Counted from the first letter of the stretch, positions 14,977 to 35,369 are shown. The stretch: DNA of 64,000 bases from an uncultured bacterium (GCA_964441235.1 CAYTUQ010000010.1:11549-75548); one strand, 5' to 3'. The notes: generated by a model from the sequence alone, not told the origin. Translations and numbers: made by a program.

Positions 14977-14977
14977 C

Positions 14978-15727
14978 ATGAAACGCCTGTTACTATTCTG
15001 CCTGATTATCATCACATCCCTGACCGCCGGCGATCCCGACGTGTCGGGACCGGAGATTCTAAATAAAATCATCAATCTTATGAATCCCGAAAACGCCCGG
15101 GGAGTCATGGAACAGACTATTGTAACCACTTCCGGCGATAAGAGGACTTTCAAATACGAAACTTACATGGGCAATCGCGGTGAGTCGTCACTCATGCGCT
15201 ATCTGGAACCTTCCCGGGTCAAGGGCAATGCGCTGCTCATGATCGATTTTTCCGACAATATCTGGATGTATAACCGCCGCACCGGTCGTGTGCGTAAACT
15301 GGCGTCACATGCCAAAAAGCAGAAGTTCGAGGGTTCCGATTTCACTTATGAAGACATGGGTTCCGGGGACAGCTGGAAAACGGATTTTAAACCCATATTA
15401 AAAGGCACTCAAAAGATAAACAAAGTACGTTGCTTTAAGCTGGAACTTCAGACGAAATCCGAGGATGTTTCTTATAGTAAAATGATCTGTTGGGTACGTG
15501 TCGGCGATTTTTTCCCGATTCAGATCGATTACTACGATGAGAAAAATGTGTTCACAAAAACCCTGTTTCTTCAAGATATTCGTACAATTGAAGGTATATT
15601 AACTCCCATGAAAATGGTTATGAGAAATAATCTCGACCGCACTGAAACCGTCATGAAATACGTCAATATCACTTATGATGTTGAGTTTGATAAAGGCTTC
15701 TTCAGCGAACGAAATTTAAAAAAATAG
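14978..15727 (+). CDS. LolA-like outer-membrane lipoprotein-sorting family protein
   Basis: Signal peptide, and the typical position between TetR and the MMPL transporter. Confidence 0.5.
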   Translation: MKRLLLFCLIIITSLTAGDPDVSGPEILNKIINLMNPENARGVMEQTIVTTSGDKRTFKYETYMGNRGESSLMRYLEPSRVKGNALLMIDFSDNIWMYNRRTGRVRKLASHAKKQKFEGSDFTYEDMGSGDSWKTDFKPILKGTQKINKVRCFKLELQTKSEDVSYSKMICWVRVGDFFPIQIDYYDEKNVFTKTLFLQDIRTIEGILTPMKMVMRNNLDRTETVMKYVNITYDVEFDKGFFSERNLKK

Positions 15728-15744
15728 ACCGAAATGAGATTCTT

Positions 15745-16908
15745 ATGAAACGACTACTTTTTTTGCTAATCATCAGCGCTTCACTTCTTGCCGGACCGGA
15801 CTGGTTTGGGTATTACGAGGGTGAATATGATTTCGGAAAATTACAGGACAAATCAATGTATTTCGGGTATAACAAGTTGCGCCTTGACATGGATACCAGC
15901 CCATCTGAAAATATCAGGATCAGCGCGGACCTGATTTACAAGGAGTATAACGGCCAGACAAATCTGAATTTTCTGGATTTTCTCGACCCCGGTTTTCGAC
16001 CGGTTGTTCCAAATTCTGATATGTCTGGTTGGGACACATTATCCTATATTCCTTACGCCCTCTCGGATTCCCTGTTTATCGACAACATGTTCCTGGAATT
16101 CCATCACAAACTTTTCGATCTGACACTCGGTAAACAGCAGATTTCCCCCGGCGTGGGTTACGCCTGGAATCCGACTGACATTTTCAATATCAAGGATATC
16201 ATGGACCCCACCTATGAAAATACCGGGATTTCTGCTATTAAACTCGGCATACCGCTGGCTGAACGCATTATTTTAACCGGAATTTTACAACCCAAACAAT
16301 CGTGGGATGAGACGGTACAGTATTACCAGATAAAAACCGGGTTTGGGCGCTACGATCTATCGGTCTTATATAGTCGCAGTCAGTATCGTCAGAGCGGTCT
16401 GTTTACAACAACAATCCAGTCACACAATCTATATGGGTTCAACCTTGAAGGTGAATTGTTCGGACTTGGCATTCGCAGCGAAGTAGCCGCTCACCGGTTG
16501 GATTATAACAGCGATAATTTACAATACGAATACATTATCGGCGGTGATTATACGTTTGCCAATTCCCTGTTCCTCCTGACTGAATTCTACCACAGTGACC
16601 TGGGAGCAAAAACCGATCAGACCGTCTTCGATGATTATATGGTCTATTTTGCCGGCGAGCGCAAAAGCCTGAATCAAAATTATCTCTTTGCACTGGCAAT
16701 GTATCCGCTGGGCGACTTGCTGGATATCAGCGCCTTCGGAATTATCAACCTGAATGATAAAAGCGCCGTCATCGCGCCGCAACTGATGTACAGGATTTTC
16801 CAAGATGTGGAATTAGCTTTTATGGGTAGTCTGTTCATCGGTGAAGATCCAGACGAGTTCGGCTTTCAGGAATATGGCGCACGTGTGCGCTTAAGAGCCT
16901 ATTTTTAA
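15745..16908 (+). CDS. Predicted outer-membrane beta-barrel (DUF1302-like)
   Basis: Signal peptide, alternating beta-strand pattern, C-terminal aromatic (AYF) OMP signature. Confidence 0.5.
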   Translation: MKRLLFLLIISASLLAGPDWFGYYEGEYDFGKLQDKSMYFGYNKLRLDMDTSPSENIRISADLIYKEYNGQTNLNFLDFLDPGFRPVVPNSDMSGWDTLSYIPYALSDSLFIDNMFLEFHHKLFDLTLGKQQISPGVGYAWNPTDIFNIKDIMDPTYENTGISAIKLGIPLAERIILTGILQPKQSWDETVQYYQIKTGFGRYDLSVLYSRSQYRQSGLFTTTIQSHNLYGFNLEGELFGLGIRSEVAAHRLDYNSDNLQYEYIIGGDYTFANSLFLLTEFYHSDLGAKTDQTVFDDYMVYFAGERKSLNQNYLFALAMYPLGDLLDISAFGIINLNDKSAVIAPQLMYRIFQDVELAFMGSLFIGEDPDEFGFQEYGARVRLRAYF

Positions 16909-16974
16909 TAATCCGATCTTATTTTAATCTGCTGTAATGGATGAAAGCTGTTAATATTAAAAAGAGGTAAGATA

Positions 16975-19900
16975 ATGAGAGAAAAATTTTTAGATACAAT
17001 TGCTCGCTGGGCAGGTGAAAAAACCTGGTGGATGTTTTTGGGGATAATAATAATTACTATAATTATGGGCGCTTTGGCAGGACAATTAGAAGTGAATATG
17101 AATCTCACTATGCTACTTCCTGAAAACGACCCAATGGTAAATGAATTCAATAAAATCTTTAAAGAATTTAATGGCGCCAATACAGTTTTTGTTGTTGTCG
17201 AAGGAGAACAACAGAATATGAAAAAATTCGCCGAGTATATTACTCCCAAAATATTAAACCTTGAAAATTGGATAGAACAAAATGCTTCTTCCAAAGTAAA
17301 GAAACAACACAACATACTTATTACAAAAGCTGATGAGGGAAAAACCGAATATGCCGGGAATTATTTTGATAGAGTGGATTATAAAATGCCAACTGAATTC
17401 ATGAGAGATCATGGCCTTATGCTGGTAAAAAGTTCTGATCTAAAAAATACCAGTGAAGTATTTACAAATCCCAATATTGTAAAATTATTACAAAATATAA
17501 ATAACAGTCTGGAAAAGGAATATATCCAATCAGAAGAGAAAATCTCCACTACACAGAAAGAACGTTCCGCAGTACAATTTCTTGATGGAATTGAGAGCTG
17601 GTTGGATAATACTGCAAAAGGACTCTATGATTCAGAATATAAAAAACAATCTGCTACTAAAGCAGCAAATGCAATAGGCGTAGGAAATCCCTATTTTATA
17701 TCACCCGATCGCTCAATGCTGCTTATAATGGCTGAACCTACCTTTTCTATCATGGATATGAATTGTGTAATGCCAGGCATCAATGGATTGGAAGAAATGG
17801 TGAAAACTGAATCTACACAATTTAATGTAAAAGCCGGTTTAGCCGGAGGGGTAGTACTTGGCAGAGATGAAATGGTAGCCGGCACAGAGGATTCTTATCT
17901 TTTAACTATATTGGCTTTAATCGCAATATTTATCCTTTTCATATTCACTTTCAGGATGTTCAGCGCCCCTTTGCTTGCGATGTTTAATTTATTAATCGGA
18001 ATAGTGTGGGTTATGGGTGTGGCTTATCTATTAGTACAGAGATTAAATTTATTTACGTTAATGGTTTCTGTGATTCTTGTTGGTCTCGGAATAGATTTTT
18101 CCATTCATATCATTTCACTTTTTTCAGAATACGTAAACAAAGGTGTAGAACCTAAAAAGGCTATCCGCATTACTTTACAAAAAGCGGGAACTGGTATTAT
18201 TACCGGTGGAATAACTACTTCTGCCGCTTTCTTAACACTTTGCATTGGACGTAGTGAAGGTATTAGTGAATTTGGGCTTGTAAATGGAGTCGGCTTATTA
18301 TGTATTATGATTGCTACGATAATCACTCTGCCGACTTTTTTAATGTTACGTGAAAAATACAGAAACTGGCGGGGGAAAAGTATTAAAAAATACCATGATG
18401 TAACCTATGCAGCAATTGGTAATATTGGGCAGAAACAATATAATAAGTGGAAAGTTTCTTTGGTTTCTCTGATCCTTGTCACTCTCATATTGGGTTATTT
18501 TATCACAAAAGTCACTTTTGACTATAATTATCTAAATATGGAGCCGGCTGGATTAGAATCTATTAAACTTAATGATAAAATTATCGACAAATACAACATG
18601 TCTTCGGATGCAACCTGCATTACAGCTAATTCCCTGCAGGAAAACTATAAATTTGCAGAGGAAGCCAAAGAAAAATCCAGTATCAGTTATATTGAATCCA
18701 TTACTGACTATTTACCACCGCAGGACAAGCAAAAATCACGTAAGCAAAAGATAGCAAATATTCACAAGCAGATGGAAAATCAAACAATTGCACAGAAAAT
18801 TACAGAGGTGGATTGGCAAAAATTCATTGATGAAATGATTCGCCTGGAAGATAATGTCATTGAAATGCAGGATATGGCTTTCATAGGCGGGCAGGATATG
18901 GTGGATACAAAAGCAGCCCGCTTAGTCGGGAATGCTAATATTTCTAGAGCAGTAGTTGATCTGGAAGACCTTTTATTTAATCCGGCGGATTTAGAAATTA
19001 ACAATAAAATCAAAAATATTTGCAAGATGCTGAACTTCGTCAAATCCAAAAAGGAAAATCCAAGAATAAAGAATGAACTTTCTGAACTTATAAATAAACT
19101 ATCCGCTTTTTCTAAAAATTCAGTTTCATTATCTAAGGATGAAAAAATAGAAAAACTTAACAAATATTATGGTAAATTAACGCAAATTACTGAATATCCG
19201 GAATTTAAGGGCAGGATATCAGAATTTATAACCCAATTGACTAATAACTCCGATAAATTGGAGCGGCTATCAAAATTTAATCATGATTTTGCTCTAGAAT
19301 ATAAAAATTTAATCCTGAATATGGCTGATACATCGAACATAACTTTATCAATGCTGCCGGATCTCATCAGAGATAAATACATTAGTAAAAGCGGGGAAGT
19401 TTTTCTTTTATCAGTTTATCCCAAAGGGAATATATGGAATCTGAAGTACCTGGATCTTTTTTCCAATGAAATGTTCGAAATCTCCCATAGAATTATCGGA
19501 ACTGCCCCTATGTTTTATTATCTGATAAAAATTATTGGCAGAGATGGGAGAAATGCTGCCTTTTTGACTCTATTTGTGGTCTTCATTTTCTTGTTAATTG
19601 ATTTTAAATCTTTTAAAAGTGCTTTTCTTGCTATGATTCCCCTATTAACCGGAATGATCTGGATGTTGGGATTAATGGGAATATTTCATGTACAACTCAC
19701 TCTTGTAAATATTATGGCTTTACCATTAATTCTGGGAATTGGGGTTGATGATGGAGTACATATCCTGCATCGTTACAGGATTGAAGGAACAGGTGCAATT
19801 AAAACTGTTTTCGCTTCAACGGGAAAAGCAATTATCATAACATCTCTGACAACAATGTTATCTTTCGGCTCTTTAGTTTTTGCCACTTACAGAGGTTACG

Positions 19901-20007
19901 GTAGTTTGGGAATTGCTCTATTTATCGGAGTTGGCGCTTGTCTGTTGACATCTCTTCTGATATTACCGACAATTCTTGGTATGGTTGATAGGAAAAAGAA
20001 GAAATAA
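16975..20007 (+). CDS. MMPL/RND-superfamily transporter (HpnN-like, two SSD-type TM bundles)
   Basis: Two repeats of 6 TM helices after large periplasmic domains. GLGIDFSIHI and GIGVDDGVHILHRY motifs. Confidence 0.85.
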   Translation: MREKFLDTIARWAGEKTWWMFLGIIIITIIMGALAGQLEVNMNLTMLLPENDPMVNEFNKIFKEFNGANTVFVVVEGEQQNMKKFAEYITPKILNLENWIEQNASSKVKKQHNILITKADEGKTEYAGNYFDRVDYKMPTEFMRDHGLMLVKSSDLKNTSEVFTNPNIVKLLQNINNSLEKEYIQSEEKISTTQKERSAVQFLDGIESWLDNTAKGLYDSEYKKQSATKAANAIGVGNPYFISPDRSMLLIMAEPTFSIMDMNCVMPGINGLEEMVKTESTQFNVKAGLAGGVVLGRDEMVAGTEDSYLLTILALIAIFILFIFTFRMFSAPLLAMFNLLIGIVWVMGVAYLLVQRLNLFTLMVSVILVGLGIDFSIHIISLFSEYVNKGVEPKKAIRITLQKAGTGIITGGITTSAAFLTLCIGRSEGISEFGLVNGVGLLCIMIATIITLPTFLMLREKYRNWRGKSIKKYHDVTYAAIGNIGQKQYNKWKVSLVSLILVTLILGYFITKVTFDYNYLNMEPAGLESIKLNDKIIDKYNMSSDATCITANSLQENYKFAEEAKEKSSISYIESITDYLPPQDKQKSRKQKIANIHKQMENQTIAQKITEVDWQKFIDEMIRLEDNVIEMQDMAFIGGQDMVDTKAARLVGNANISRAVVDLEDLLFNPADLEINNKIKNICKMLNFVKSKKENPRIKNELSELINKLSAFSKNSVSLSKDEKIEKLNKYYGKLTQITEYPEFKGRISEFITQLTNNSDKLERLSKFNHDFALEYKNLILNMADTSNITLSMLPDLIRDKYISKSGEVFLLSVYPKGNIWNLKYLDLFSNEMFEISHRIIGTAPMFYYLIKIIGRDGRNAAFLTLFVVFIFLLIDFKSFKSAFLAMIPLLTGMIWMLGLMGIFHVQLTLVNIMALPLILGIGVDDGVHILHRYRIEGTGAIKTVFASTGKAIIITSLTTMLSFGSLVFATYRGYGSLGIALFIGVGACLLTSLLILPTILGMVDRKKKK

Positions 20008-20016
20008 TTACCAGAG

Positions 20017-20343
20017 GTGAATATCATTGGCAAACAGCAGGATGTTGTTAATGTAATGGCTTTACCATTAATTCAAAGGATTGGTATTGATGACGGTGTC
20101 CATATCATCCATCGCTGGCGCAGAGAGGGACGCGGCTCCGTAAAGACTGTCTTTGCAAGCACCGGAAAAGCTATCCTTCTTACTTCTCTAACAACAATGC
20201 TGGCGTTTTGATCGCTTTTATTTTCTTTATGGAGAGGATATGGAAGCCTGGGAACTGCACTCTTAATCGGTGTTGGCGCCTGCTTCATCACCACCGTATT
20301 TATTCTTCCCGGGATTATCGGGTGGATTGAGAGAAATTTCTAA
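20017..20343 (+). pseudogene. Decayed, GC-richer duplicate of the MMPL transporter 3' end
   Basis: VNVMALPLIQRIGIDDGVHIIHRWR...KTVFASTGKAILLTSLTTMLAF then, after a frameshift, ...GYGSLGTALLIGVGAC...ILPGIIGWIERNF. It parallels the last ~110 aa of the intact gene ending at 20007. Confidence 0.7.
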
Positions 20344-20649
20344 TTTCTAATTTCAAATATCAGATTTCAAATTGAAAAATGCTTGACATGCTCGAATGTA
20401 TTTAATAAAATTAGTCGTAAATACAGAGTGATTTTAATGTGATTTTTCTTAGGATGCTATATGGAATTTATCCACTCAGTAAAGAACTCGCGTCTAAAGA
20501 AGATGATAAAACAAGATTTGTGATAATAGAAATATAATTCGTTGATTGATCAGGAAAAAGAAAATAGACTTACCATTATCGTAGAGAATCGAAAAGGTAA
20601 ACATTTGTTAAAAGGGTTGAATCAGATTTCTTATATATTGATACTATAA

Positions 20650-20949
20650 ATGGATATAAGAAATATTCAAGATAGAATAAAAAAAGGCGCCTATCGATTT
20701 TCGGATCATGCTATTAAACGTATGATAGAACGATCACTTGACCGCAAAGATGTTGAAGAAGCAATTTCGAACGGAAAAATTATTGAAGAATATCCAGATG
20801 ATAAATATTCACCAAGTTGTTTAATTTATGGACAAACAGACACAGAACGAGATCTTCATGTTCAGATTTCTCTACCGCCAAAAGTCGTAATCGTTACAAC
20901 ATATGAACCTGATCCTCAAGAATGGATCAATTGTCAAATCAGGAGGTAA
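20650..20949 (+). CDS. DUF4258-family type II toxin
   Basis: YRFSDHAIKRMIERSL and the size are typical of DUF4258. It is paired with a zinc-finger antitoxin downstream. Confidence 0.65.
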   Translation: MDIRNIQDRIKKGAYRFSDHAIKRMIERSLDRKDVEEAISNGKIIEEYPDDKYSPSCLIYGQTDTERDLHVQISLPPKVVIVTTYEPDPQEWINCQIRR

Positions 20950-20954
20950 TTAAG

Positions 20955-21200
20955 ATGAATTGTGTATTTTGTGGAGGCAAAGTTGAGTCTAAAGAAGTAA
21001 CATTTACTTATGAAAGTGAAGATCAGGTTATTTTAGTTAGAAAAGTACCTGCTGAAGTTTGTACTCATTGTGGTGAAAAAACTTACTCTCCCAAGATTAC
21101 AGATGAACTTTTAAAATTTGCTAAATGTCGTTTTAAGCCTGTGAAAACAATCGAAACTCCGGTGTTTGATTATACGAGAAAAGTGGCTGTAAAAGTTTAG
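20955..21200 (+). CDS. YgiT/MqsA-type zinc-finger antitoxin
   Basis: CVFCGG...CTHCGE double CxxC motif. The aggagg RBS favours the ATG at 20955 over 20922. Confidence 0.6.
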   Translation: MNCVFCGGKVESKEVTFTYESEDQVILVRKVPAEVCTHCGEKTYSPKITDELLKFAKCRFKPVKTIETPVFDYTRKVAVKV

Positions 21201-21378
21201 TTTATTTTTCATTTTATAGTACTGTCACGTCACACTTGTGTCGATCGAAGATTCCTTTGGAAAGACATCTCTTCGAGATAATGACGTATAGAATATAGTA
21301 ATTTTATAACCAAAGTTTGATGGTTCTGTCAATTAAAATTGCTAAAAATATTGGCATAAAAACAATTGAGGTAGAAAA

Positions 21379-21597
21379 ATGATTACCTATACATTTTCCA
21401 AAGCAAGACAAAATTTTGCCACGGTACTTAATAAAGCAAAAGAAGATAGTGAAGTATTAATCAAACGTAAAGATGGAACTTTATTCAAAATCCAATCAGT
21501 CAAGAAAAATATGTCCCCATTTGATGTAAAAGGTATAAATCTATCAATTACGTCTGAAGAAATAGTTGATATCGTACGTGAAATAAGAGAAAGATAA
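21379..21597 (+). CDS. Phd/YefM-like antitoxin (orphan)
   Basis: MITYTFSKARQNFATVLNKA has an antitoxin-like N-terminus. No cognate toxin lies downstream; repeat DNA follows. Confidence 0.5.
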   Translation: MITYTFSKARQNFATVLNKAKEDSEVLIKRKDGTLFKIQSVKKNMSPFDVKGINLSITSEEIVDIVREIRER

Positions 21598-21829
21598 ATC
21601 GTAACCGTTCACCCCGTTAGATACTTACTATTTTAAACAACGAATATCTATTAGGGGTTGTTATCTCACGGGGTTCACGGCTTTTCCAAAGGAACTCCCT
21701 TGGAGGAAACTTGAAATTGGAAAGTAGAAATTGGGAATAAGGGAGACCTGTCTGCGTGCCTGCCTGAGAGAGTACGCTCGCAGACAGGCGGGCACGCACA
21801 GGCAGGGATGAAACGAGTTTACGAGTTGG

Positions 21830-22325
21830 ATGTCTATGCCGATCGAAGATTCTCCGAAGGAGTCCTATGTGACCTTTGTAAAGGCATGCCTTTGGCACAA
21901 ACTGGCAGAAGCGTTATCAGATATGGTTTGGCACGACTTTGATAAATGGAACAAAAAGGTTCAGAACACAGTGGGCTATCAGATAATACAATCATCTGAC
22001 AGCATAGCTGTAAATATAGCGGAAGGGTATGGTCGACACACCCCCGCTGACAGGAAAAAGTTCTATATTTACCCCGTTAAATTCTGATCCATCAGAATAT
22101 TTAACTGGGGTATATTCAAGAAGTTCATTTGAAGAAACCAAATCATGGTTGCGAAAACTTATCAGAAGAAAAGTTTTAACTGAGTCAAGCGCAACAGAAT
22201 ACAAAGCAATAGTTGCTCCGCAGGTCACAACGGTCAGACGACTCGTAGAGACTCCTTTGGAGAGCCCCCTCGGGAAAAAACTCGGCCCAAAATTGAATGC
22301 GTTCATCAACAGTACAAAAGCATGA
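21830..22325 (+). pseudogene. Four-helix-bundle (23S rRNA intervening-sequence family) protein, frameshifted
   Basis: IAEGYGRHTPADRKKFYIY in one frame continues as ...GVYSRSSFEETKSWL in the next (ORFs 21830..22087 and 22029..22325). Confidence 0.55.
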
Positions 22326-22448
22326 AGACCAAATTTCTAATTTCAACGTTCGTTGAACAGTTACTAATAAGGAAACATTCGTTATTCACACTGCAGCTAA
22401 CTTTTGACCGTTATATAATCCGTCTAATTTCTATTTAAAGCAAGAAAT

Positions 22449-24461
22449 ATGAACCGATCTCAGGCAGAACAAAAACTACAACAAATATTTAACATTGATC
22501 ATTTTTATGACGACCAATGGGATACGATCAAGAGAATTCTAAATGGTGAAAGAATCCTGTTAGTCGAAAAAACCGGCTTCGGTAAATCTCTCTGTTATCA
22601 GTTCCCGGCAACTCAATTTTCCGGTTTGACAATAATCTTTTCACCCTTGATTGCATTGATGCGCGACCAGGTTAAATACTTAAAATCAATCGGTATTCCA
22701 ACTGAATGCGTGAATAGCGGGCAAGAGTCCGAAGAAAATACTGAAATAATGGAAAAGGCAAAAAACGGACAAATCAAAATTCTTTATATTGCCCCCGAAC
22801 GACAGGAGAACCGGGAATGGTTGGAAGCCGTTCGCAATATGCAAATCTCGATGGTGGTCATTGATGAAGCCCATTGTATCTCTGTATGGGGGCACGATTT
22901 CAGACCAGCCTTTCGTCGCATCGTCAGTTTGGTAAAATTGCTCCCGCAAAATTTTCCGGTATTAGCAACAACAGCAACTGCCACTAAAAGAGTAGCAGAA
23001 GACGTACGAACACAAATTGGAAATAATGCTACTCTTATTCGCGGAAATCTACTACGGGAAAATTTCCATTTAAGTGTAGTTAAAGTATCTAATGAAGAAT
23101 CCAAAATGGCATGGCTGGCAGGATTTCTTCAAAAGCAGGAAGGAAATGGTCTGGTTTATACCGGAACAAGAGTCAACACGGATCTTTTTTCTTCCTGGTT
23201 GCAATTTGCCGGTATAAGCGCGGCAAACTATAATGCCGGTTTGGATTCAGAATCCAGAAAAGACATTGAGAACGGATTAATTGAGAACAGGTGGAAATGT
23301 ATTGTTTCAACCAATGCACTTGGAATGGGGATTGACAAACCGGATATTCGATTTATTATTCACACGCAAATACCTCAATCTCCCATCCATTACTACCAGG
23401 AAATCGGAAGAGCGGGACGAGATGGATTACCGACGAGAATTGTTCTATTATATAACCCGGATGATAAGGAATTGCCGGAACATTTCATCAAAAATAGTCG
23501 CCCCTCGATAAAAAAATATGAAAGAGTTATTGATGCCCTCAAAACCGAACCGATGAGCGAATGGAATTTGATGCGTGCAACAAATCTTACACAGACACAA
23601 GTACGAGTTATTAGAGCAGATTTGATTGATCAAGGCATCATTAAAGAAGTGATGTATGGCAGAAGTAAAAAATACGAATACCAGTATGGCGCATCTCAAC
23701 TTGATACGAGACCTTTTGAAGAACTTCGGAATTTCAAGATGGCTGAACTGGAACAGATGATATCCTATTCCGAGTCCTCAACCTGTAGAATGGATTTTCT
23801 TTGTCGCTATCTTGGCGACGATACTGTCAATCATTGTGGAAAATGTGATAATGATTTACAAAAAAACCTTCATTACGGTCTCTCTGAATACTGGCAAAAA
23901 AAGATTAATGAATTCAGGGATTCTTATTTCCCCGAGTTGGAAATTGAATTAAAAAATTCCAATATCGTCAACGGCGTCGCATGTTCATATTATGGCATAT
24001 CCAATGTTGGCGCGGCAATACACCGTTGTAAATATGAAAACGGCGGCGATTTCCCCAACCATTTATTGAGACAAACTTTAAGGGCATTCAGACACAAATT
24101 TGGAAATGAGGAATTTGACCTTGTCGTATATGTTCCACCAACAGAATCAGGTGATCTTGTGAAGAATTTTGCAGAAAAAGTGGCGCGGACATTAAAATTC
24201 CCATTATCACACAAACTTGTGAAAATAACTAACACGAAACCACAAAAAGTATTTCAAAACTCTGTCTTGAAACACGATAATGTAAAAGATGTATTTTCAT
24301 ACCAGGATGAATCCAGGATTATTGGTAAGAAGATTTTATTAATTGACGATATTTATGATAGTGGCGCAACTATTAAGGAAATTGGACGATTATTTACTAA
24401 ATTAGGGGCAGAGAAAATTGCGCCATTAGTAATAGCAAAGACAGTGGGGGGCGATATTTAA
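22449..24461 (+). CDS. RecQ-family helicase fused to a C-terminal ComF-type phosphoribosyltransferase domain (PsyrT-like)
   Basis: RecQ motifs: [23 protein letters not shown], and the Zn module CRMDFLCRY...CGKCDN. The C-terminal ~190 aa carry the PRTase signature NVKDVF...[16 protein letters not shown]. Confidence 0.85.
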
Positions 24462-25579
24462 TGAGTGATATTCAACAATATGCCTATTGGATGGCTTTAG
24501 CCCATTTACCAAAATGGCGAACGGAAAAAATAAATCGTTTAATTGTGGAAATTCTACACGAACGAAATATGTCCTTTTCTGAATTTTTTGAGATGGATCA
24601 AAAAAGTTGGTCAGAAGAATTTCAGTTCAATTCAAAAGAATTAAATGATCTGGATACAGCAAAATCCGAACTTCCCAATTATTCTTTTCTCGTTGAAGAT
24701 TTACTAAATCAGGGCTTTGAATTAATTCCAATAGATGCCGATGATTACTCACCCACCCTAAAAAATAATTTAAAACTGAAATATGCCCCGCCTTTACTTT
24801 ACACTAAAGGAAACAAAAGTTTACTGAAAGAATCATCCATTGCTATCGTTGGTTCACGAAACGCTTCTGATATTTCTTTGGAATTCACAAAGAATATTGC
24901 TAAAAATACTGTTAAGAACTTTCAGGTTGTCGTCAGCGGTTTTGCGAAAGGCGTTGATCGAACAGCATTAGAAGAAACTTTAGCCGCATACGGTAGAAGC
25001 ATCATTGTTCTGCCGCAGGGGATTATGACTTTTGCCAGTGGTTTTAAGAAATATTATTCCCGGATAATTGAAGGTGATATCCTGATTTTAAGCGCTTATC
25101 ACCCCAAAGCGCCCTGGTCCGTCGGACTTGCAATGGGACGAAATGCTTACATTTACGGTTTAGCGGATAAAATCTATGTAGCCGAATCTGATGTAAAAGG
25201 CGGAACCTGGTCAGGTGTGGTTGACGGCTTGAGAAAAAACAGGGAAATCTATGTTCGCAAACCAAACCCTGGTGAAAATAACGCTAATGATTTATTGATT
25301 TTAAAAGGCGCGACGCCGGTAAGTATTAATGGCGATATCGTACAAAAAGAAGAATTAGAGAATTTTGAAGAACGGGTGAAAAACGTTCTTTCATCCAAAC
25401 CGTTAACCGCAAGTGAAATAAAAGATAAAATTCATATTGATATTGATACGCGAAAACTATCGTCTATGCTTTCTGAATTGGCATTTGTTGTTAAGGAAAA
25501 GGGAAATAGTAAAAACCGTTTCAGGCTTAAGAATTCAGAGGTTGTTCAAACAAATTTATTTGATTCACGTGATATCTAA
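24461..25579 (+). CDS. DprA/Smf-like Rossmann protein (PsyrA-like partner)
   Basis: PPLLYTKGN...IAIVGSRNAS...GFAKGVD...IVLPQGI...ILILSAYHP...WSVGLAMGRNAYIYGLADKIYVAESDVKGGTWSGV is the DprA core. Its start overlaps the upstream stop (TAATG). Confidence 0.8.
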   Translation: MSDIQQYAYWMALAHLPKWRTEKINRLIVEILHERNMSFSEFFEMDQKSWSEEFQFNSKELNDLDTAKSELPNYSFLVEDLLNQGFELIPIDADDYSPTLKNNLKLKYAPPLLYTKGNKSLLKESSIAIVGSRNASDISLEFTKNIAKNTVKNFQVVVSGFAKGVDRTALEETLAAYGRSIIVLPQGIMTFASGFKKYYSRIIEGDILILSAYHPKAPWSVGLAMGRNAYIYGLADKIYVAESDVKGGTWSGVVDGLRKNREIYVRKPNPGENNANDLLILKGATPVSINGDIVQKEELENFEERVKNVLSSKPLTASEIKDKIHIDIDTRKLSSMLSELAFVVKEKGNSKNRFRLKNSEVVQTNLFDSRDI

Positions 25580-25590
25580 TCCCCACTATA

Positions 25591-25622
25591 CCCCACGGCA
25601 AACCGCCGTCGGTGAGTTTTTT
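25591..25622 (+). terminator. Rho-independent terminator after the DprA-like gene
   Basis: GC hairpin cggcaaaccgccg..ggtgag followed by a TTTTTT run. Confidence 0.4.
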
Positions 25623-25823
25623 CAATAAAAGAATAAAACCGGGAATGTTGGTTCTTTCTGTAAACCTATTTTTATATATTTTTTAATAAAACAATTGCGT
25701 ACTTCAAGTTAGACCGCCAAAATGGTGAAATACTAATAAATGGTATCATTATAGATAAAAATAACTTGATAATTCTTTTGGTAAATAGTACATTTGGAAT
25801 GTACAGTAGGAAAGGTAATACAT

Positions 25824-26054
25824 ATGCAAACAATTGCAGTAAATGAATTAAGAGCGAATTTAATGAAGGTCTTAAAAAAAATTGAATATGGAGAAAGTCT
25901 TGATATTACCTCTCAAGGTAAAGTCGTTGCTAAACTAGTACCTCCTGAATATAGTAGAGAAAAAGCAAGAAATAAACTAAAGGAAATTAGAAAGAGAGCT
26001 GTAATACATGATGTAATTTCTTCCATCGATGTTGAATGGGAGACAATGCAATAA
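25824..26054 (+). CDS. Phd/YefM-family antitoxin
   Basis: MQTIAVNELRANLMKVLKKIEYGESL. RBS aggaaagg. Overlaps the PIN gene start. Confidence 0.75.
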   Translation: MQTIAVNELRANLMKVLKKIEYGESLDITSQGKVVAKLVPPEYSREKARNKLKEIRKRAVIHDVISSIDVEWETMQ

Positions 26055-26554
26055 TGATAACTGTAGACACCCATATCATTATTTGGGATGCTTTGAAACC
26101 GGAATTGCTAAGTGAAAAAGCAAAAAGTGAATTGGAACGAGCAAACCAAACAGATGGGATTATTTTCTGCGATATTTCTCTTTGGGAAATTGCAATGCTG
26201 ATTAAGAAGAAAAGAATAGAAATTGATGTCCCATATCTTGAATTCATAGATTTAGTTAAAGCTTCAAATAATTACATTTTTCAAGAAATAACTCCAGAGA
26301 TTGCTGAATTATCTGCCAATTTAACATTAGATATTAATTCAGACCCAGCTGATAGATTAACCCTACTACGTCATTTAGTACTTTTGTATACAATATGTTG
26401 TTTGTATATGTTAATGTTAACCAAACATATAGTGCTATATCTTATAAGTTACGTTGTAGGGTTAATTAGCGACACTTCTCTTATTTCCAATACTACACTA
26501 ATCACAGCTGATAAAAACCTAAGAAAATCGAAAGAATTAAGAACAATATGGTAA
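26054..26554 (+). CDS. VapC PIN-domain toxin carrying an ~40-aa in-frame insertion
   Basis: MITVDTHII...DISLWEI...DPADRL then an atypical hydrophobic stretch before the terminal ...TTLITADKNL PIN block. Confidence 0.65.
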   Translation: MITVDTHIIIWDALKPELLSEKAKSELERANQTDGIIFCDISLWEIAMLIKKKRIEIDVPYLEFIDLVKASNNYIFQEITPEIAELSANLTLDINSDPADRLTLLRHLVLLYTICCLYMLMLTKHIVLYLISYVVGLISDTSLISNTTLITADKNLRKSKELRTIW

Positions 26555-26616
26555 AGGCGGTATAACATTCGTTGACGTTACACCCCTCTGGCGGGGTAAC
26601 GTTTTAACCTGTTGTC

Positions 26617-26883
26617 TTACATATCCGTAGGACATAATTCAAAGATTTTCGCTCTTTTATAATTCAAACTTATTTCTAATGTTTCTTGAAAAAAACAACG
26701 GCATACATCACCTATGTCCGTTAGAAGGATAAAATTCAAAATGTAAATATTTTTTCTATAACTGAAGTTCCCCCGAAATTGGAAATCCCTTATAACGCAT
26801 TTTTTATCTTTACTCAACGCCAGACGCTGGAATAGTCCGGAATTAATCTGCCGCCGCAGTTCCCGAACCGACCAGTTATCCAA
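26617..26883 (-). pseudogene. Fragment of a DUF1016/YhcG-like (PD-(D/E)xK) protein
   Basis: NWSVRELRRQINSGLFQRLALSKD matches the conserved YhcG-family block. No full-length ORF is present. Confidence 0.45.
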
Positions 26884-27007
26884 ATAACTCTGATTTTTTT
26901 AAAATTGGCGTTCGAGATTGTCCTTGATTTTCAGTAATTCTAGTAATATGACCAATTTAATATTTGTGACCGTGTTCCACTTTTTTACAATTATCCTGAC
27001 AGTGCCA

Positions 27008-27163
27008 GGATTATCGGGTGGATTGAGCGAAAAAGGAAATAGTATCCGGCATTCAGTATCCAGTATCAAATTTCATCCATGCTTCTCCCGCTCGGGCGGT
27101 CACAAAGGACTCATAGGAGAACATACATGACAAGAATTTCTAATTTCTAATTTCTAATATCAG
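27008..27163 (+). repeat. Second direct repeat of the MMPL 3'-terminal sequence (ggattatcgggtggattgag...aatttctaatttctaatttc), with a ~95-bp internal insert
   Basis: Matches 20312-20372. A partial third aatttctaatttc copy sits at 22332. Confidence 0.6.
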
Positions 27164-27396
27164 TCGGTACGGTTATTCACTTAGGACTTGACAATAGAAT
27201 CATAAAAGAGTAAAATATTAGCGTAATGACTATAGATGAACAAAAGCGAATAGACATTTCTCGATTGAGAAACATTGCTAAAAAGTTTCTCTATATAGAC
27301 ATTTATTTCTCGATAGAGAAACTATGAAATGAATTAACGTTTGCAAGTTAAAAATATGTTAGGTTTAATAAAAATGAATAAATGATATAGGTATAT

Positions 27397-27798
27397 ATGA
27401 AAATGAAAAGATCTTTAGGAATAACGATAATTGGATGGTATTTCATCGTTCAGGGATGGATAGCACTCGGACAGTACGGTGATATTGGTAATTTTGCATT
27501 AGTTCTTGTAGCTTTATTTGTATGTATTGGCATCGGCTTGCTCAAACTATTTAACATTGCAAGAATTGCCGCTATACTTTTATTTGTTATTCTATCCTGT
27601 TATTCTTTATTTCTCACCATTAATTTATCAAGTCAATATTCAGACTCTATGATTGTAGGGAAAGCCATATCCATGCTTATATTTAGTACGGTGTTATTAA
27701 TTATATTCTTGTTTTTCTTTACAAGGCCTAATATTAAAAACCAATTCAAAGAAAAAAGTAGTTCAAAAAATAAAAATAATGGGTCTGTTAATTCATAA
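27397..27798 (+). CDS. Small integral membrane protein (4 TM)
   Basis: Hydrophobic helices with a K/S-rich tail. No family recognised. Confidence 0.45.
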   Translation: MKMKRSLGITIIGWYFIVQGWIALGQYGDIGNFALVLVALFVCIGIGLLKLFNIARIAAILLFVILSCYSLFLTINLSSQYSDSMIVGKAISMLIFSTVLLIIFLFFFTRPNIKNQFKEKSSSKNKNNGSVNS

Positions 27799-27824
27799 TA
27801 GAAAATTTTACATATATTGACAAT

Positions 27825-28014
27825 GATAAGCCGACCGCAGGCGGTCGGCTTATCGGCACGGGAGTTGTTGGCTCACTCCATGAAAGTCCGCCTGCGGCGG
27901 CCTATCAATGTCGTTCGAGCCGACCCCGCCTACGGCGGCTACGTCCTGTACTCGCATCTGAGAGAAATCCTTTCTCTCCTTGCTGCGTACAGGATGCGGC
28001 TCAACTCCCGTGCC
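27825..28014 (+). mobile_element. 190-bp GC-rich hairpin-ended miniature element, copy 1 (PATE / IS200-605-derived-like)
   Basis: Perfect 30-nt palindrome gataagccgaccgcaggcggtcggcttatc at one end, with ggcacgggagttg...caactcccgtgcc enclosing the rest. It is essentially identical to the inverted copy at 42620-42809 and much GC-richer than the host. The ORF called inside it is rejected. Confidence 0.65.
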
Positions 28015-28047
28015 GTTAGCACAATAAAATGAAGAGGCAGATATAAA

Positions 28048-28626
28048 TTGTCATTAGTATATCGAAATTATAAAAATCAGGAATTCTATCTTCATAAATC
28101 TTTAACAAAAAAAGGTAATCCCAAATATTACTTTTCTACTAAGAAAGAAGGAGAACTTGTTGATTATATTCCTGACGGATATGAAATATACGAAAATCCA
28201 AATGGGCAGGTTTTTTTAAGTAGAATACAACCAAAGCTTATTACTGATGATGAAAAGAGCATTGTTTTAAATGGAATGTACAAATATTCGGATGTAAATA
28301 TATTTAAAATTGATGTAAAGAGAGATATAATAAACATTTATACTCCTGATCAAGATATTGAAGAACTCTCAAAATTTATAGAGATGTCTCCCCTTAGAAG
28401 AAAAAATAGAGATAAAGATAACATAATTAATCAAGTAGTTCATTATTCACCTGTTTTACAATTTATATTAGTTGATAGTTCAATGAGGCATTTTATAACA
28501 AGAAGATATTGTTATTTAGGTTCAATAGATGATTGGATTGAGATCGGACAAATTGGAATACTATCAGATTTAGTGAAGAAATATGTAAAGCATATTGGTA
28601 AAGATTCATATTATGATTTAGATTAA
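28048..28626 (+). CDS. Hypothetical protein (192 aa)
   Basis: ORF with no recognisable motifs. It lies in an accessory region. Confidence 0.45.
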   Translation: MSLVYRNYKNQEFYLHKSLTKKGNPKYYFSTKKEGELVDYIPDGYEIYENPNGQVFLSRIQPKLITDDEKSIVLNGMYKYSDVNIFKIDVKRDIINIYTPDQDIEELSKFIEMSPLRRKNRDKDNIINQVVHYSPVLQFILVDSSMRHFITRRYCYLGSIDDWIEIGQIGILSDLVKKYVKHIGKDSYYDLD

Positions 28627-28815
28627 AAAAATAAGGTGCTAACCATCTCATGCACCCGACAGCGAACGCAGTTGCATGATTGGAGGGATTTAGAGTTTGG
28701 GAATCATTAGTGAAAGAGTTAAAGGTTTACTGATTTAAGTTCGCTGCGGGTGATGAAGTTTCCGTTATCTGCCATTATTAAAGGTATGAAGGTAGATTTG
28801 TGAGAGGAGTTTTAT

Positions 28816-29601
28816 ATGGAACAGTTTAATCAAAAAAATTATTGGACATGGAGGAAAATATTGACGGGTTTAGGAGTTATATTAATCTTGATTATTATCT
28901 ACTTTGTAAATAGAGACTCCACGAATTTGCCAGAACAGATTAAGAAACACCCAAAAGAGACAAAATTATTAGAAGACGAAGCTCGTGAAGCAGTTTCATC
29001 TATGGACCAGGATGATATAAATCTGATGGAAGAACTCACTCAAAAGGCAATTAATCTATTACCCGATGATGAAAAACAACAGCTCATATCCTTGCAACTT
29101 CGGTTCAATGAATATAGTTATGATGCCCTAACAGAAAACGAAATAAATACAATGCAACAGTTAAACAAAAAAGCCATTGGTTTATTATCCACAGAAGATA
29201 ATCTAAAACTAAGCAAGATATTTGAAAGAGCCGTGGATGAAGTTCGTAAAGATATTAAAGAACAAATTCCTAATCAAGACAACTCCCGTTTGAAAGAACT
29301 GGTGGGTAAATTGGATGACCCTGATGAAGCAGTGAGATGGAAAGCAATATTGGAATTAGAAAGGCTGGGGCCAAAGGCAAAGGAAATAATTCCAGACCTT
29401 ATACGGTACTTAGAGAATGATGATTGGCGGATTAGGTATTATGCCGTTGAAATACTGGGAATGATAGGTTCAGATGCTAAAGCTGCTTTCTCAGCTTTAC
29501 AAAAGGTATCAAAAGACCCTGATTGGAAAGTTCGCAAGAGAGCTTCATGGGCACTCGATGAAATATCAAAAAATAATAAAAAGAATAATACCGGCAGATA
29601 A
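28816..29601 (+). CDS. HEAT/PBS-lyase-like repeat protein with an N-terminal TM anchor
   Basis: DDPDEAVRWKAILELERLG...DDWRIRYYAVEILGMIG...DPDWKVRKRASWALDEI HEAT repeats. Internal DD.NLMEELTQKAI / ENEINTMQQLNKKAI repeats. Confidence 0.7.
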   Translation: MEQFNQKNYWTWRKILTGLGVILILIIIYFVNRDSTNLPEQIKKHPKETKLLEDEAREAVSSMDQDDINLMEELTQKAINLLPDDEKQQLISLQLRFNEYSYDALTENEINTMQQLNKKAIGLLSTEDNLKLSKIFERAVDEVRKDIKEQIPNQDNSRLKELVGKLDDPDEAVRWKAILELERLGPKAKEIIPDLIRYLENDDWRIRYYAVEILGMIGSDAKAAFSALQKVSKDPDWKVRKRASWALDEISKNNKKNNTGR

Positions 29602-29619
29602 CAAAACGCTGCACCAGAC

Positions 29620-29659
29620 CGCTATTCCGCTACGCTCCATAGCGGCAGGTGAATTTTTT
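29620..29659 (+). terminator. Rho-independent terminator
   Basis: ccgctat(12-nt loop)atagcgg hairpin + caggtgaaTTTTTT. It shares the ggtgaRtttttt tail with the 25591 terminator. Confidence 0.4.
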
Positions 29660-29690
29660 CGTTAGGTTATTACTTTTACGAGGATAAAAT

Positions 29691-30704
29691 ATGAGCTATG
29701 ATGCGAAACCAATCATTTTTTATAAACCTGCTATGAGTACCCCTCAGATAAAAGCAGCTATGGATTCATTTTTCAAATATTGGTTACCAAAGCATAGTTA
29801 TTCGGAAGATTTAAAATTATATCATTACACGACATTAGAAGGTTTAAAAGGAATAATAAATAGTCGTTCAATACGGTTTACCCACACAAGTACATTAAAC
29901 GACCCATCAGAATTAAAATACGGAAAACAGTTAATTTTAGATATATTAAGTGATACAATTAATAATGAGAATGAAGATAATATTAAAAATCTATTGAAGG
30001 ACTTGTCAACCTTTATAAATGTATTTGATACAATATCATATCAAACTTATGTAGCCTGTTTCTGCAAATCAGAAAATTTATTAAGTCAATGGCGAAGTTA
30101 TGCAGCTCAAGGTGGTGGATATAACCTTGGCTTAAGATTTCAGTCTAGTACAAAATTTTATCATGCTTTAGACGACTCCGAAAAGGAGAGTTATATAATT
30201 TTACGCAAAATGATATATGATATTGATGAGCAAAGAGAATTAGTATCAAACTATATTTCATCTATAGTTACTAGTTCAAGTGATGCTATAAAATATTTTA
30301 GAGAACATGGTGGTGTTCCACAAGCTTGGGCATCAATTGCTGCTATGGAGTCTGTTAATATATTATTTGATTTAATGCTATCATTTAAAAACCCGGTATT
30401 TAGAGAAGAAAATGAATGGCGTCTAATTAAAGGAATGGAAGCTGAACATAGACCTGAACTTATAAAATTTAGAGAAACCAATGAAGGTCTTGTCCCATAT
30501 CTTGAAACATATATAGTGGAAGATTTAGAAGGGGAATCCACTTTTCCGCTTCGCACAATTAAATTTGGTCCCATGCTTGATGAAGCAAGAACTAAGTCTA
30601 CGTTAGAACTTTTCGTGAATAAAGAAGCTGCTTTAACTAATAAAATAAAAATCGATACAAGTAACACAATAATTTCGGGTGCAGGATATATCTTGAGAGA
30701 ATAA
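29691..30704 (+). CDS. DUF2971 domain protein
   Basis: LYHYTTLEGLKGIINSRSIRFTHTSTLNDPSE is the DUF2971 signature. Confidence 0.7.
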   Translation: MSYDAKPIIFYKPAMSTPQIKAAMDSFFKYWLPKHSYSEDLKLYHYTTLEGLKGIINSRSIRFTHTSTLNDPSELKYGKQLILDILSDTINNENEDNIKNLLKDLSTFINVFDTISYQTYVACFCKSENLLSQWRSYAAQGGGYNLGLRFQSSTKFYHALDDSEKESYIILRKMIYDIDEQRELVSNYISSIVTSSSDAIKYFREHGGVPQAWASIAAMESVNILFDLMLSFKNPVFREENEWRLIKGMEAEHRPELIKFRETNEGLVPYLETYIVEDLEGESTFPLRTIKFGPMLDEARTKSTLELFVNKEAALTNKIKIDTSNTIISGAGYILRE

Positions 30705-30906
30705 ATTTCAATTAGCATATCCTAACGAATCTTTTATAGAAAGTAAAGTCAAGAACATAATTCACCGTAACCCCTAGTTTTTAACTTTTAGGGCGCCATA
30801 AAGACGGTTGAAATTTTACTAATGTCGCACTGCCTGTTTTCATAGAGGATATTTCCAGTTTGAAAAACCATACTTATATAACAGGGATTTCTAACCGATC
30901 AGTTTT

Positions 30907-31031
30907 GCCTCAACGGAAGTCTCTGGTGAGACACCTGACGCCATATAAATAAAATAACGATAGCCGAGAAAATCTTTTATTCAGTGTCAGCGTGCACCAA
31001 AGGCGTCTCAATGTGACAAGCAGTGGTTGAA
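30907..31031 (+). repeat. attC-like ~125-bp direct repeat, copy 1
   Basis: Starts gcctcaacgg. It has internal imperfect palindromes (gagacac...gcgtctc; ctgacgcc...ggcgtcag), and similarity to copy 2 ends at ...caagcagNggttg. Confidence 0.45.
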
Positions 31032-31262
31032 ACCATCCCATGGAATTAACGAGGTGAGCTGCTCGACAAAATTAGGTTTTGGCGATTTTACCAAAGATTT
31101 ACGAATGTTAAAAGTAAATCACTTCGAAATCCGGCGTATCTCATACGTTGACCGTTAGCACGTAACAATAGAACAACGAAATAATATAAAATCCTTTTAA
31201 TTAACCATAGCATTGATTATCTTAGTTATGTTGTATGACTAAGTAATAAAAGGGGTAAAAAA

Positions 31263-31490
31263 ATGATACAAGTAAATATACACCATGCAAAGACTCACCT
31301 TTCAAGATTAATTCAAAAAGCAATTGAAGGTGAAGAAGTGGTTATAGCAAAAGGAAATAAACCGATAGTTAAATTAACGCAAATTCTAAATGTACCACAG
31401 ATTAGGAAACTGGGATCTGCTCAGGGGAAAATACATATATCTGATGATTTTAATGAGCCATTGGATGATTTTGCGGAGTATATGAATTGA
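31263..31490 (+). CDS. Phd/YefM-type antitoxin (VapB-like)
   Basis: MIQVNIHHAKTHLSRLIQKAIEGEEVVIAKGNKP. Overlaps the PIN gene start. Confidence 0.7.
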   Translation: MIQVNIHHAKTHLSRLIQKAIEGEEVVIAKGNKPIVKLTQILNVPQIRKLGSAQGKIHISDDFNEPLDDFAEYMN

Positions 31491-31873: not shown

Positions 31874-31901
31874 GCAAGTAATGTGCTAATGAATCTGCTT
31901 C

Positions 31902-32021
31902 GCCTCAACGGAAGTCTCTGGCGAGGCACCTGACGCCATATAAATAAAATAACGATAGCTGAAAATCTTTTATTCGGCGTCAGCGTGCACCAAAGGCGTC
32001 TCAATGTGACAAGCAGGGGTT
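31902..32021 (+). repeat. attC-like direct repeat, copy 2
   Basis: About 94% identical to 30907-31031 over ~120 nt. It brackets the Phd–VapC cassette. Confidence 0.45.
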
Positions 32022-32912: not shown

Positions 32913-32933
32913 ACTGATTTTATCACCTTTTAT

Positions 32934-33527: not shown

Positions 33528-33576
33528 TGTGTTATCTCCTCTTTATTAATAATTCAAGATACTGCATTTCTGAGCA

Positions 33577-35361: not shown

Positions 35362-35369
35362 TTATTTAT

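Follow-up and report, generated by a model that had tools for sequence, protein, structure and literature searches.

Repeats of a transporter gene end around toxin-antitoxin and defence genes in an uncultured Neomarinimicrobiota bacterium: gene replacement or site-specific integration?

How do copies of the 3' end of a gene come to lie on both sides of accessory DNA that encodes no integrase? The question is raised by a 64-kb stretch of DNA (hereafter the window; 64,000 nt, GCA_964441235.1, CAYTUQ010000010.1:11549-75548) from an uncultured marine bacterium of a Neomarinimicrobiota lineage, in which an intact MMPL transporter gene is followed by a second, imperfect MMPL gene end and then by toxin-antitoxin (TA) and defence genes. 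All coordinates are positions in this window unless a relative is named. An earlier note on the same DNA described an accessory island of about 6.8 kb (20017-27163) and proposed that integration or replacement had occurred repeatedly at the 3' end of the transporter gene, with displaced gene ends left behind as att-like repeats. In the current study, the locus appears best explained, with a probability of roughly 0.6, as a hotspot that retains displacement relics and in which the gene tail was duplicated without a recombinase.

Relatives of the locus were recovered by anchoring on the conserved 387-aa gene upstream of the transporter, which gave eight genome loci (six recorded as Candidatus Neomarinimicrobiota metagenome-assembled genomes, or MAGs, and two labelled uncultured bacterium or bacterium only), and additional contigs were obtained by protein look-ups and one DNA pattern scan. 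The latter, run over metagenomes with a 19-nt pattern from the gene tail, returned 62 loci, of which two (L017 and L069) are related to the window and the other 60 are chance matches. The close relatives are L007, L009, L010, L011, L012, L015 and L017, whose upstream protein is 75-82% and LolA-like protein 86-92% identical to that of the window. The window's MMPL protein itself occurs unchanged on 18 metagenome contigs, and every one inspected has the same island at 100% identity.

The intact transporter gene and the gene end beside it

The intact MMPL gene ends at 20007, as previously reported; its open reading frame (ORF, 16975-20007) encodes 1010 aa (PF03176; HpnN-like by NCBIfam). At this position all close relatives carry a different MMPL gene of about 880-925 aa, here termed B-type, to which the window's gene, here termed A-type, is distantly related: the protein shares 43% amino acid identity with that of L015, and by blastn most of the B-type gene shows no similarity to it. 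This divergence is incongruent with that of the flanking proteins, which are 75-92% identical. The left flank matches L007, L009-L012, L015 and L017 at 75-88% nucleotide identity up to 16908, so that the left boundary of the replaced segment coincides with the end of the 387-aa gene. The A-type protein is closer to those of L013 (59.5%) and L080 (62%), though the 387-aa proteins of these loci are only 73% and 48% identical to the window's.

The second gene end begins 10-15 nt past the stop codon of the intact gene. The earlier note had taken it for a frameshifted, GC-richer and decayed 330-bp copy of the intact gene's own end, and part of that description stands: the copy exists where it was placed, and its GC content (0.449) exceeds that of the corresponding 312 nt in the intact gene (0.381). 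The frameshift does not, since the copy stays in one frame through to …GIIGWIERNF and its stop codon, with a single TGA (20209-20211) where functional homologues have Gly. Nor is the parentage as described. The copy is 68% identical to the neighbouring gene end over 238 nt and 62% over the last 312 nt, whereas the B-type 3' ends of close relatives match it at 78-89% (blastn), that of L007 at 89% over 20018-20331 and 93% over 20080-20336; it thus belongs to the B family, which overall shares 43% protein identity with A. The B-type gene ends of relatives have a GC content of 0.45-0.52, so that the GC-richness of the relic, on this comparison, is a general property of such ends. The nonsynonymous divergence (dN) between the window relic and functional B-type ends is 0.044-0.072, compared with 0.00-0.05 among functional genes; across the stumps compared, dN is 0.044-0.12 and nonsense codons occur, a pattern that shows relaxed constraint on the stump.

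The history of the two adjacent ends is revealed by L079, a second locus with an A-type gene. In 100-nt bins, the 3' end of the upstream gene is 71-77% identical between the window and L079; identity then rises to 90-100% per bin, mostly 95-100%, from 16896 to about 20075-20095 (~3.2 kb), falls to 75-76% over the rest of the stump, and past the heptad repeats that follow the gene end the two sequences are unrelated. The near-identical block thus comprises the A-type gene, the junction between A-type and B-type sequence and the first ~55-75 nt of the stump, while the flanks on either side track each genome's own lineage: the left flank and stump of the window are closest to L007 (85% and 93%), and those of L079 to L010 and L012 (88-89% and 80-82%). 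Because of this mosaic, and because each stump agrees with its own left flank, the comparison shows the A-type gene to be foreign, the stumps to be native B-type gene ends of two different backgrounds, and homologous recombination, its right crossover falling within the stump, to have carried the A-type gene and its junction from one lineage to another. Import of the stump en bloc with the A-type gene was considered and rejected, as the stump right of ~20076 matches the window's own L007-like background.

It is therefore very probable, as far as sequence comparison can tell, that displacement of the resident B-type MMPL gene left the 330-bp copy behind as a relic and that the A block has spread horizontally. 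In this respect the earlier proposal of replacement with a displaced gene end is borne out, the stump being what remains of a resident gene overwritten by an A-type allele. The competing explanation, an in situ tandem duplication of the MMPL 3' end or an old pair of A and B paralogues of which B was later truncated, accounts for two homologous ends lying adjacent at a start-to-start spacing of 342 nt. It is effectively refuted by the 89-93% identity of the copy to functional B-type genes elsewhere versus 62% to the neighbouring gene end, by the finding of both genes together in none of 10 related loci, and by the mosaic nature of the A block, which is 90-100% identical between genomes with flanks of ~75%.

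The replacement is reconstructed as follows. A foreign A-type allele overwrote the first ~88% of the resident B-type gene, with the left end of the exchange at the end of the conserved upstream gene and the right end at a non-homologous junction ~15 nt past the A-type stop codon, at about codon -107 of the B-type gene. At this junction the A-type TAA is followed by TTACCAGAGGTGAAT and then by ATCATTGG…; GGTGAAT|ATCATTGG unites non-homologous positions with microhomology of at most a few nucleotides, and GGTGAAT shortly 3' of the stop codon also occurs in the A-family genes of L013 and L014. The block formed by the A-type gene, the junction and the first ~55-75 nt of the stump later passed between lineages diverged by ~25%, with its right crossover inside the stump or a B-type gene.

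Relics of this kind seem to recur across genomes. Used as a first protein query, the stump retrieved only short MMPL C-terminal proteins; these were not accepted as proof of widespread relics, as most lie on short contigs. Two inspected on long contigs (L087 and L088) are genuine stand-alone stumps. In L087 (6001-6435), the same operon (TetR, LolA-like and 384-aa genes) ends in an MMPL gene cut down to a 144-aa 3' stump, with a junction different from that of the window, and in L088 a 124-aa MMPL stump (6001-6375) lies near AhpC and Fur. The B-type MMPL gene of the window's closest relative, L007 (2434-5123), is split into three overlapping ORFs of 277, 464 and 142 aa, either a pseudogene or the result of assembly frameshifts.

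A hotspot between MMPL and AhpC and the duplicated gene tail

The earlier note suggested comparing related genomes for empty sites, and two were found. L014 has, starting within ~100 nt after MMPL, a run of genes (AhpC, DsbD, patatin, cyclophilin and others) collinear with window positions 32946-41111, and in L017 a B-type MMPL tail with two heptad arrays is followed after ~300 nt by AhpC. The accessory DNA therefore extends from 20008 to ~32930 (12.9 kb); the content of the proposed island was correctly regarded as accessory, but its ~6.8 kb (20017-27163) form only the left half. The cargo differs among L007, L009-L012, L015 and L079, and in all of them it follows the same tail and heptads, directly beginning with a PIN-Phd pair in L079 and L012. 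These comparisons show the interval that separates MMPL from AhpC, two convergent core genes, to be a recombination hotspot of this Neomarinimicrobiota lineage, holding TA and defence modules exchanged between species.

Within this hotspot, the terminal sequence of the relic recurs distally, as the earlier note had observed. Two repeat pairs were defined, 20309-20336 versus 27005-27032 (28 nt, 93%) and 20328-20363 versus 27128-27163 (36 nt, 89%); the 20-mer GGATTATCGGGTGGATTGAG occurs exactly twice in the window versus 0 times in 100 shuffles, and an 18-mer of the heptads (at most 3 mismatches) has 9 matches versus 0.84 expected, eight of the nine lying in this locus, including a partial copy at 22334 that had been reported at 22332. 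The alignments of gene ends and repeats that the note had called for give identities of 62-68% for the copy and 89-93% for the repeats. All B-type relatives end in …GIIGWIERKR(E/K/G) and a stop codon, with heptad repeats immediately 3'. A long native form is found in L007, L010 and L017, consisting of the stop codon, heptad array 1, a spacer of 40-125 nt (…CGCAGGACAAGAA) and heptad array 2. The distal copy in the window has this long form, while the proximal copy fuses …GAGAGAAA straight to array 2. The polarity of a supposed 95-bp insert in the distal copy is therefore reversed, as the extra sequence is native and the proximal copy has a deletion. The TTTCTAA-type heptads of L007 array 2 are present in both window copies. 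Since both copies look native, a real duplication, reaching from about 28 nt before the gene end through array 2, brackets 20364-27004.

Each repeat is followed, 20-25 nt to its right, by a TTGACA-17-TAAAAT site, and both rank among the top three promoter-like sites in 7.6 kb. The region up to the end of the proximal leader (20018-20478) corresponds at 78% to L009 13431-13873, and 27135-27214 aligns with L015 17350-17429 at a score of 70 (22±2.8 for shuffles), the L015 module sitting past its own distal heptads. By position, the heptad arrays occupy the place of an upstream A/T-rich promoter element, a predicted function, and they probably persist as the A/T-rich upstream part of outward promoters. 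Scans of the window for tRNA and tmRNA genes and against Rfam at the gathering threshold, and of 20-33 kb against Rfam at E≤1, gave no match; thus no RNA gene is available as a target for integration, and the repeats and spacer contain no known RNA.

A duplicated native tail raises the possibility that the 6.6-kb block is an integrative island whose att site was the last ~28 nt of the B-type gene with the downstream heptads, the repeats being attL and attR and the integrase having been deleted later. Accessory DNA bracketed by direct repeats of a target gene's 3' end (28 and 36 nt) is consistent with this, as are the presence in both copies of the TTTCTAA-type array of L007, the closest background by flank and stump, the empty sites of relatives, and L015, which has a comparable tail-like remnant of ~17 nt (AACGGACAGAAAATAG) with heptads distal to its island, followed by the promoter module. 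However, a Pfam scan of ORFs of at least 110 aa across the 64 kb found no integrase or recombinase domain, tyrosine or serine, in agreement with the earlier note (the ABC-transporter genes at 6.4-10.2 kb were judged from the Pfam annotation stored with contig L001), and none was noticed in the islands of L009 and L015, though no domain search was run there. The right end adjoins a truncated DUF1016 gene instead of an intergenic arm, the cargo is reshuffled and has no element backbone, the 19-nt tail pattern has 0 matches in 2.9 million viral contigs, and the remnant boundary differs (28 nt of tail in the window versus ~17 nt in L015). Of the att-like sites proposed earlier, the duplication itself is upheld, and these same four observations (no recombinase, truncated DUF1016 end, shuffled mosaic, no viral contig) leave the remainder without positive support. 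Integrase-mediated insertion is thus judged unlikely, and it is retained at all because the duplication is what an att mechanism predicts.

Three observations favour recombinase-free routes to the tail duplication: a truncated gene lies at the junction, none of three islands has an element backbone, and the remnant in L015 has a different boundary. The distal 160-bp repeat would be a second native B-type tail, with spacer, heptad array and a putative outward promoter, and the 6.6-kb block (PsyrTA leader, PsyrTA, VapBC and truncated DUF1016) may have recombined in just past heptad array 2, or immediately ahead of the gene's final 28 nt. The tail could have been duplicated by anchored and illegitimate recombination between sister copies, or by RecA-driven Campbell insertion of a tail-carrying circle; a 1.9-kb insertion and several deletions would have reshaped the block afterwards. 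In general, imported blocks would use the conserved MMPL operon or tail as their anchor and be joined without homology at the far side, and no dedicated integrase would be needed.

Several points weigh against this account. A native tail duplicated on either side of a 6.6-kb block is exactly the product of site-specific or Campbell integration, and deletion is a commoner outcome of one-sided illegitimate recombination than duplication. The L015 remnant means that junctions fell near the gene tail twice, which can be explained if deletions are assumed to have trimmed the sequence as far as a functional promoter. The A|B junction shows weak microhomology of a few nucleotides, and the donor of the A allele is absent from the searched databases, the best A-type match beyond the near-identical L079 lineage being 62% in a search of 5.8 billion proteins. 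The evidence throughout consists of metagenome contigs, several of which, among the relatives, stop within the island, and the mechanism is read from sequence alone.

A bolder extension, which we consider doubtful, is that stump, native tail and heptads together form a portable homology arm, by which a foreign MMPL allele and TA/defence blocks sweep through ~25%-diverged Neomarinimicrobiota, perhaps by RecA-dependent excision and Campbell re-insertion, with part of the cargo maybe in integron-type cassettes. If so, the island would be mobile without a recombinase.

The heptads also adjoin a small repeat element. A miniature inverted-repeat transposable element (MITE) of ~190 nt, with terminal inverted repeats ATGGAATCGTAAAAAGT / ACTTTTTACGATTCCAT, lies at 62857-63036 (minus strand) of the window, and the same MITE directly follows the MMPL-B heptad array in four relatives (L010 4915-5118, L011, L015 10932-11123 and L069 147-350), being bordered in L015 by a 21-nt duplication of the heptad array.

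Relation to known systems

Displacement by homology-facilitated illegitimate recombination, with orphaned 3' regions left behind, has been proposed for type VI secretion system (T6SS) and rhs/contact-dependent inhibition (CDI) loci (Kirchberger et al., 2017, PMC5361080). The resemblance is close: a divergent homologue is anchored in conserved upstream sequence, the resident gene is overwritten and its 3' stump pushed downstream, repeated events produce strings of stumps and orphan small genes, and homologous recombination spreads the arrangement. Here, however, it is a housekeeping-type MMPL/RND (resistance-nodulation-division; HpnN-like) transporter that was displaced, not a polymorphic toxin, TA and defence modules take the place of immunity genes as the orphans, and the host belongs to an uncultured phylum of the FCB (Fibrobacteres-Chlorobi-Bacteroidetes) group, the mechanism being deduced from sequence.

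Accessory and defence hotspots without integrases are also known between conserved core genes, as captured in the "defence island" concept. The present locus shares with them variable cargo (PsyrTA, VapBC, DUF4258 TA) between fixed core flanks, empty sites, no mobility genes, and cargo that is more alike between species than are the core genes; it differs in keeping relics of the flanking core gene and in that the flank itself has been xenologously replaced. With tyrosine-recombinase islands at the 3' ends of tRNA or protein genes it has in common target-derived direct repeats around accessory DNA and a displaced native end at the far side, but it has no integrase, excisionase or backbone, its right end is a truncated gene, and the 330-bp relic comes from gene replacement. 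Known processes account well for the locus, a further case of xenologous replacement that left a displacement relic at a hotspot lacking an integrase, and no new mechanism is called for.

Its value lies in resolution. In an uncultured marine phylum, the exchange of a core transporter gene for a xenologue can be followed to the base, with the junction preserved and the block caught spreading between species. A "decayed duplicate" beside a gene can be a displacement relic and neither a duplication nor an att site, which matters for MAG annotation and for mobile elements deduced from repeats only. The MMPL-AhpC hotspot could also be used for mining TA and defence cargo in Neomarinimicrobiota.

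Cargo modules and the integron-cassette lead

The features of the locus are collected in Table 1. The gene content given in the earlier note (DUF4258/zinc finger, orphan Phd, four-helix-bundle pseudogene, PsyrTA, Phd/PIN and DUF1016 fragment) was confirmed by Pfam and PADLOC.

Table 1. Features of the MMPL-AhpC locus, in window coordinates.
Feature	Position	Strand	Basis or remark
Left core flank: TetR, LolA-like (PF17131) and 387-aa genes of the MMPL operon	14152..16908	+	Pfam; homology to relatives
A-type MMPL replacement block: intergenic spacer, gene, ~15 nt past stop (TTACCAGAGGTGAAT)	16909..20022	+	Comparison with B-type relatives and L079
Relic of resident B-type MMPL: last ~107 codons, one TGA	20023..20343 (copy begins 20017/20023)	+	Translation; identity to relatives
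Proximal direct repeat: last 28 nt of B-type gene fused straight to (AATTTCT)n heptad array, without stop codon and spacer	20309..20363	+	Repeat and relative comparison
Promoter-like site TTGACA-17-TAAAAT (20383-20411) and leader	20373..20478	+	11/12 consensus; homologous to PsyrTA upstream in L009
Insertion of 1.9 kb in L009-type PsyrTA leader	20479..22410	+	Domain scans; relatives
Possible A-type MMPL tail relic: last ~10 codons, stop, ~10 nt	20517-20575	+	Local score 35 vs 18.6±2.8 for shuffles, 0/500
DUF4258 toxin	20650-20949	+	Domain match
Zinc-finger antitoxin, YgiT/MqsA-type	20922-21200	+	Domain match
PIN 3' relic	21331-21378	+	3' end of PIN gene intact in L015, L012 and L079
Orphan Phd	21379-21597	+	Domain match
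Hairpin 3' of orphan Phd	21601-21684		z = -3.9
Heptads in reverse orientation, past hairpin and upstream of pseudogene	21706-21737	-	
Four-helix-bundle pseudogene (PF05635)	21830-22325	+	Domain match
Heptads, partial copy	22332-22351	+	
PsyrTA pair: RecQ-like helicase fused to phosphoribosyltransferase (22449-24461), DprA-like protein (24461-25579)	22449..25579	+	PADLOC, Pfam
Phd/PIN (VapBC-type) pair	25794..26554	+	Pfam
5'-truncated, decayed DUF1016 (YhcG-type) gene adjoining distal repeat	26617..27004	-	DUF1016_N
Distal direct repeat: partial codon, last 11 codons and stop of B-type MMPL (…IIGWIERKRK, stop), degenerate heptad array 1, ~85-nt spacer, heptad array 2	27005..27163	+	Layout as in L007, L010 and L017
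Promoter-like site TTGACA-17-TAAAAT (27188-27216) and repeat-rich leader	27164..27358	+	11/12 consensus; homologous module in L015
Second accessory block: 133-aa membrane protein, 192-aa protein, HEAT-repeat protein, DUF2971 protein, Phd/PIN in ~140-nt direct repeats, DUF6398 (minus strand)	27359..32930	+	Missing from empty sites
Right core flank: AhpC/TSA peroxiredoxin	32934..33527	-	Adjoins MMPL directly in L014 and L017

The largest module is a predicted TA/defence pair of the PsyrTA (RqlHI) type, matched by PADLOC at E 1e-280 over full length for PsyrT and 1.9e-79 for PsyrA and carrying the Pfam domains DEAD, Helicase_C, RecQ_Zn_bind, Pribosyltran and DNA_processg_A. It is 92-93% identical at the nucleotide level to L015 and L009. 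In L009, a leader homologous to 20373-20478 lies between the B-type tail with its heptads and PsyrTA, the latter at 93% identity; compared with L009, the window leader is interrupted by 1.9 kb (20479-22410). The window modules recur in L015 at 92-97% (93-97% for those of the 1.9-kb insertion), above the 78-85% of the core flanks, yet arranged differently: PIN-Phd, four-helix-bundle, DUF4258/zinc finger and PsyrTA. There, the four-helix-bundle gene meets the DUF4258 module at the microhomology AGGMAAAAG, and a second PsyrA 3' end lies at 17107-17323. The cargo is, by these comparisons, a reshuffled mosaic shared with relatives and without an element backbone. At its right end, the DUF1016_N match covers profile positions 96-137 of 137 (E 2.4e-7), and there is no room for the first ~95 positions before 27005.

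Two smaller features of the 1.9-kb insertion deserve mention. The segment at 20517-20575 could be a third gene-tail relic, carried with the DUF4258 module just downstream, although its local score is only suggestive. The hairpin at 21601-21684 keeps its arms in L015 and differs in its loop (37 vs 78 nt); it was rejected as a module boundary or attC site, since it lies between Phd and the four-helix-bundle gene in both the window and L015 and has its GTTAGAT box on the wrong arm.

Could the modules instead be integron cassettes? [quoted passage not shown] Under such a model the modules would be cassettes moved by an IntI encoded elsewhere, with 27005-27358 as the head of the array. As in sedentary integron arrays and CALINs, the small accessory and TA genes are nearly all co-oriented, some boundaries read G|TTRRRY, and intergenic palindromic repeats occur. 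In four contexts the 133-aa gene forms a module by itself, with a shared left boundary, G|TTAGGTTT, and its homologues in other contigs adjoin attC-like sites: L086 has long imperfect palindromes ACCTAAC…GTTAGGT and ACCTAAC…GTTAGCA, and L083 has GCCTGAAC…GTTAGGC. Window candidates for attC lie at 26355-26467 (an inverted repeat in the ORF tail past the PIN domain of the Phd/PIN pair), 28637-28770 and 29598-29672, a ~140-nt direct repeat surrounds Phd/PIN at 31264-31873, and 10 of 16 plus-strand occurrences of CGTTA[GT], a motif picked after viewing the data, fall within the accessory 20% of the window. However, in none of three home-made attC scans (a regular expression with pairing, scoring of aligned arms, and a filter on folding) were sites in the window enriched relative to shuffled sequence, the candidates fold with weak z-scores (-0.9 to -2.1), and the window has no integron integrase. 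Moreover, in place of attC sites, the large PsyrTA module and the left block show promoters and terminators of the ordinary kind, and the duplication of the MMPL tail is left unexplained. As an account of this locus the integron model is thus improbable, somewhat more so than the integrase-mediated one.

The palindromes of the relatives are of interest in themselves. Canonical-looking attC-type sites occur at L086 1013-1144 and 2645-2777 (ACCTAAC…GTTAGGT, about -46 to -48 kcal/mol) and L083 1572-1620, the fold filter singling out only those of L086 as canonical-looking. On the strength of these motifs, integron-type cassette arrays are suggested to exist in these uncultured bacteria; a full-text literature search returned no paper tying integrons, attC and Marinimicrobia together. 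The ~140-nt direct repeat of the window (30891-31029 and 31886-32022, 88-95% identity) has the layout CTAAC…GGTTG with an internal palindrome, and could be attC-like or mark a cassette boundary; L085 ends with the beginning of the same element.

Other parts of the window also bear traces of mobility and defence. A GC-rich element of 197 nt is present in two inverted, 99.5% identical copies (27825-28021 and 42613-42809), with a perfect 5' hairpin (GATAAGCCGACC…GGTCGGCTTATC), a 14-bp inverted repeat (CGGCACGGGAGTTG/CAACTCCCGTGCCG) and the end G(T/C)TAGCA. The second copy interrupts an ATPase gene (AAA_14 and DUF4143) that is whole in L012 and L015, and L085 has the same flanks without the element, which resembles a non-autonomous mobile element with recent activity. 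The DNA upstream of the MMPL operon encodes, at 11958-13103, a reverse transcriptase (RVT_1, 273 aa) and an adjacent helix-turn-helix (HTH) protein, which could represent a retron, an abortive infection (Abi) system or an element of the diversity-generating retroelement (DGR) type. Further TA and defence genes are scattered among housekeeping genes at 31487-31873, 39632-40111, 41421-41882, 43744-44184, 52356-54478 and 55250-56314, comprising PIN, HEPN, Mut7-C RNase, addiction-module antitoxin, DNA methylase with TdeIII restriction enzyme, and AbiEi types, and the genome is generally rich in such cargo.

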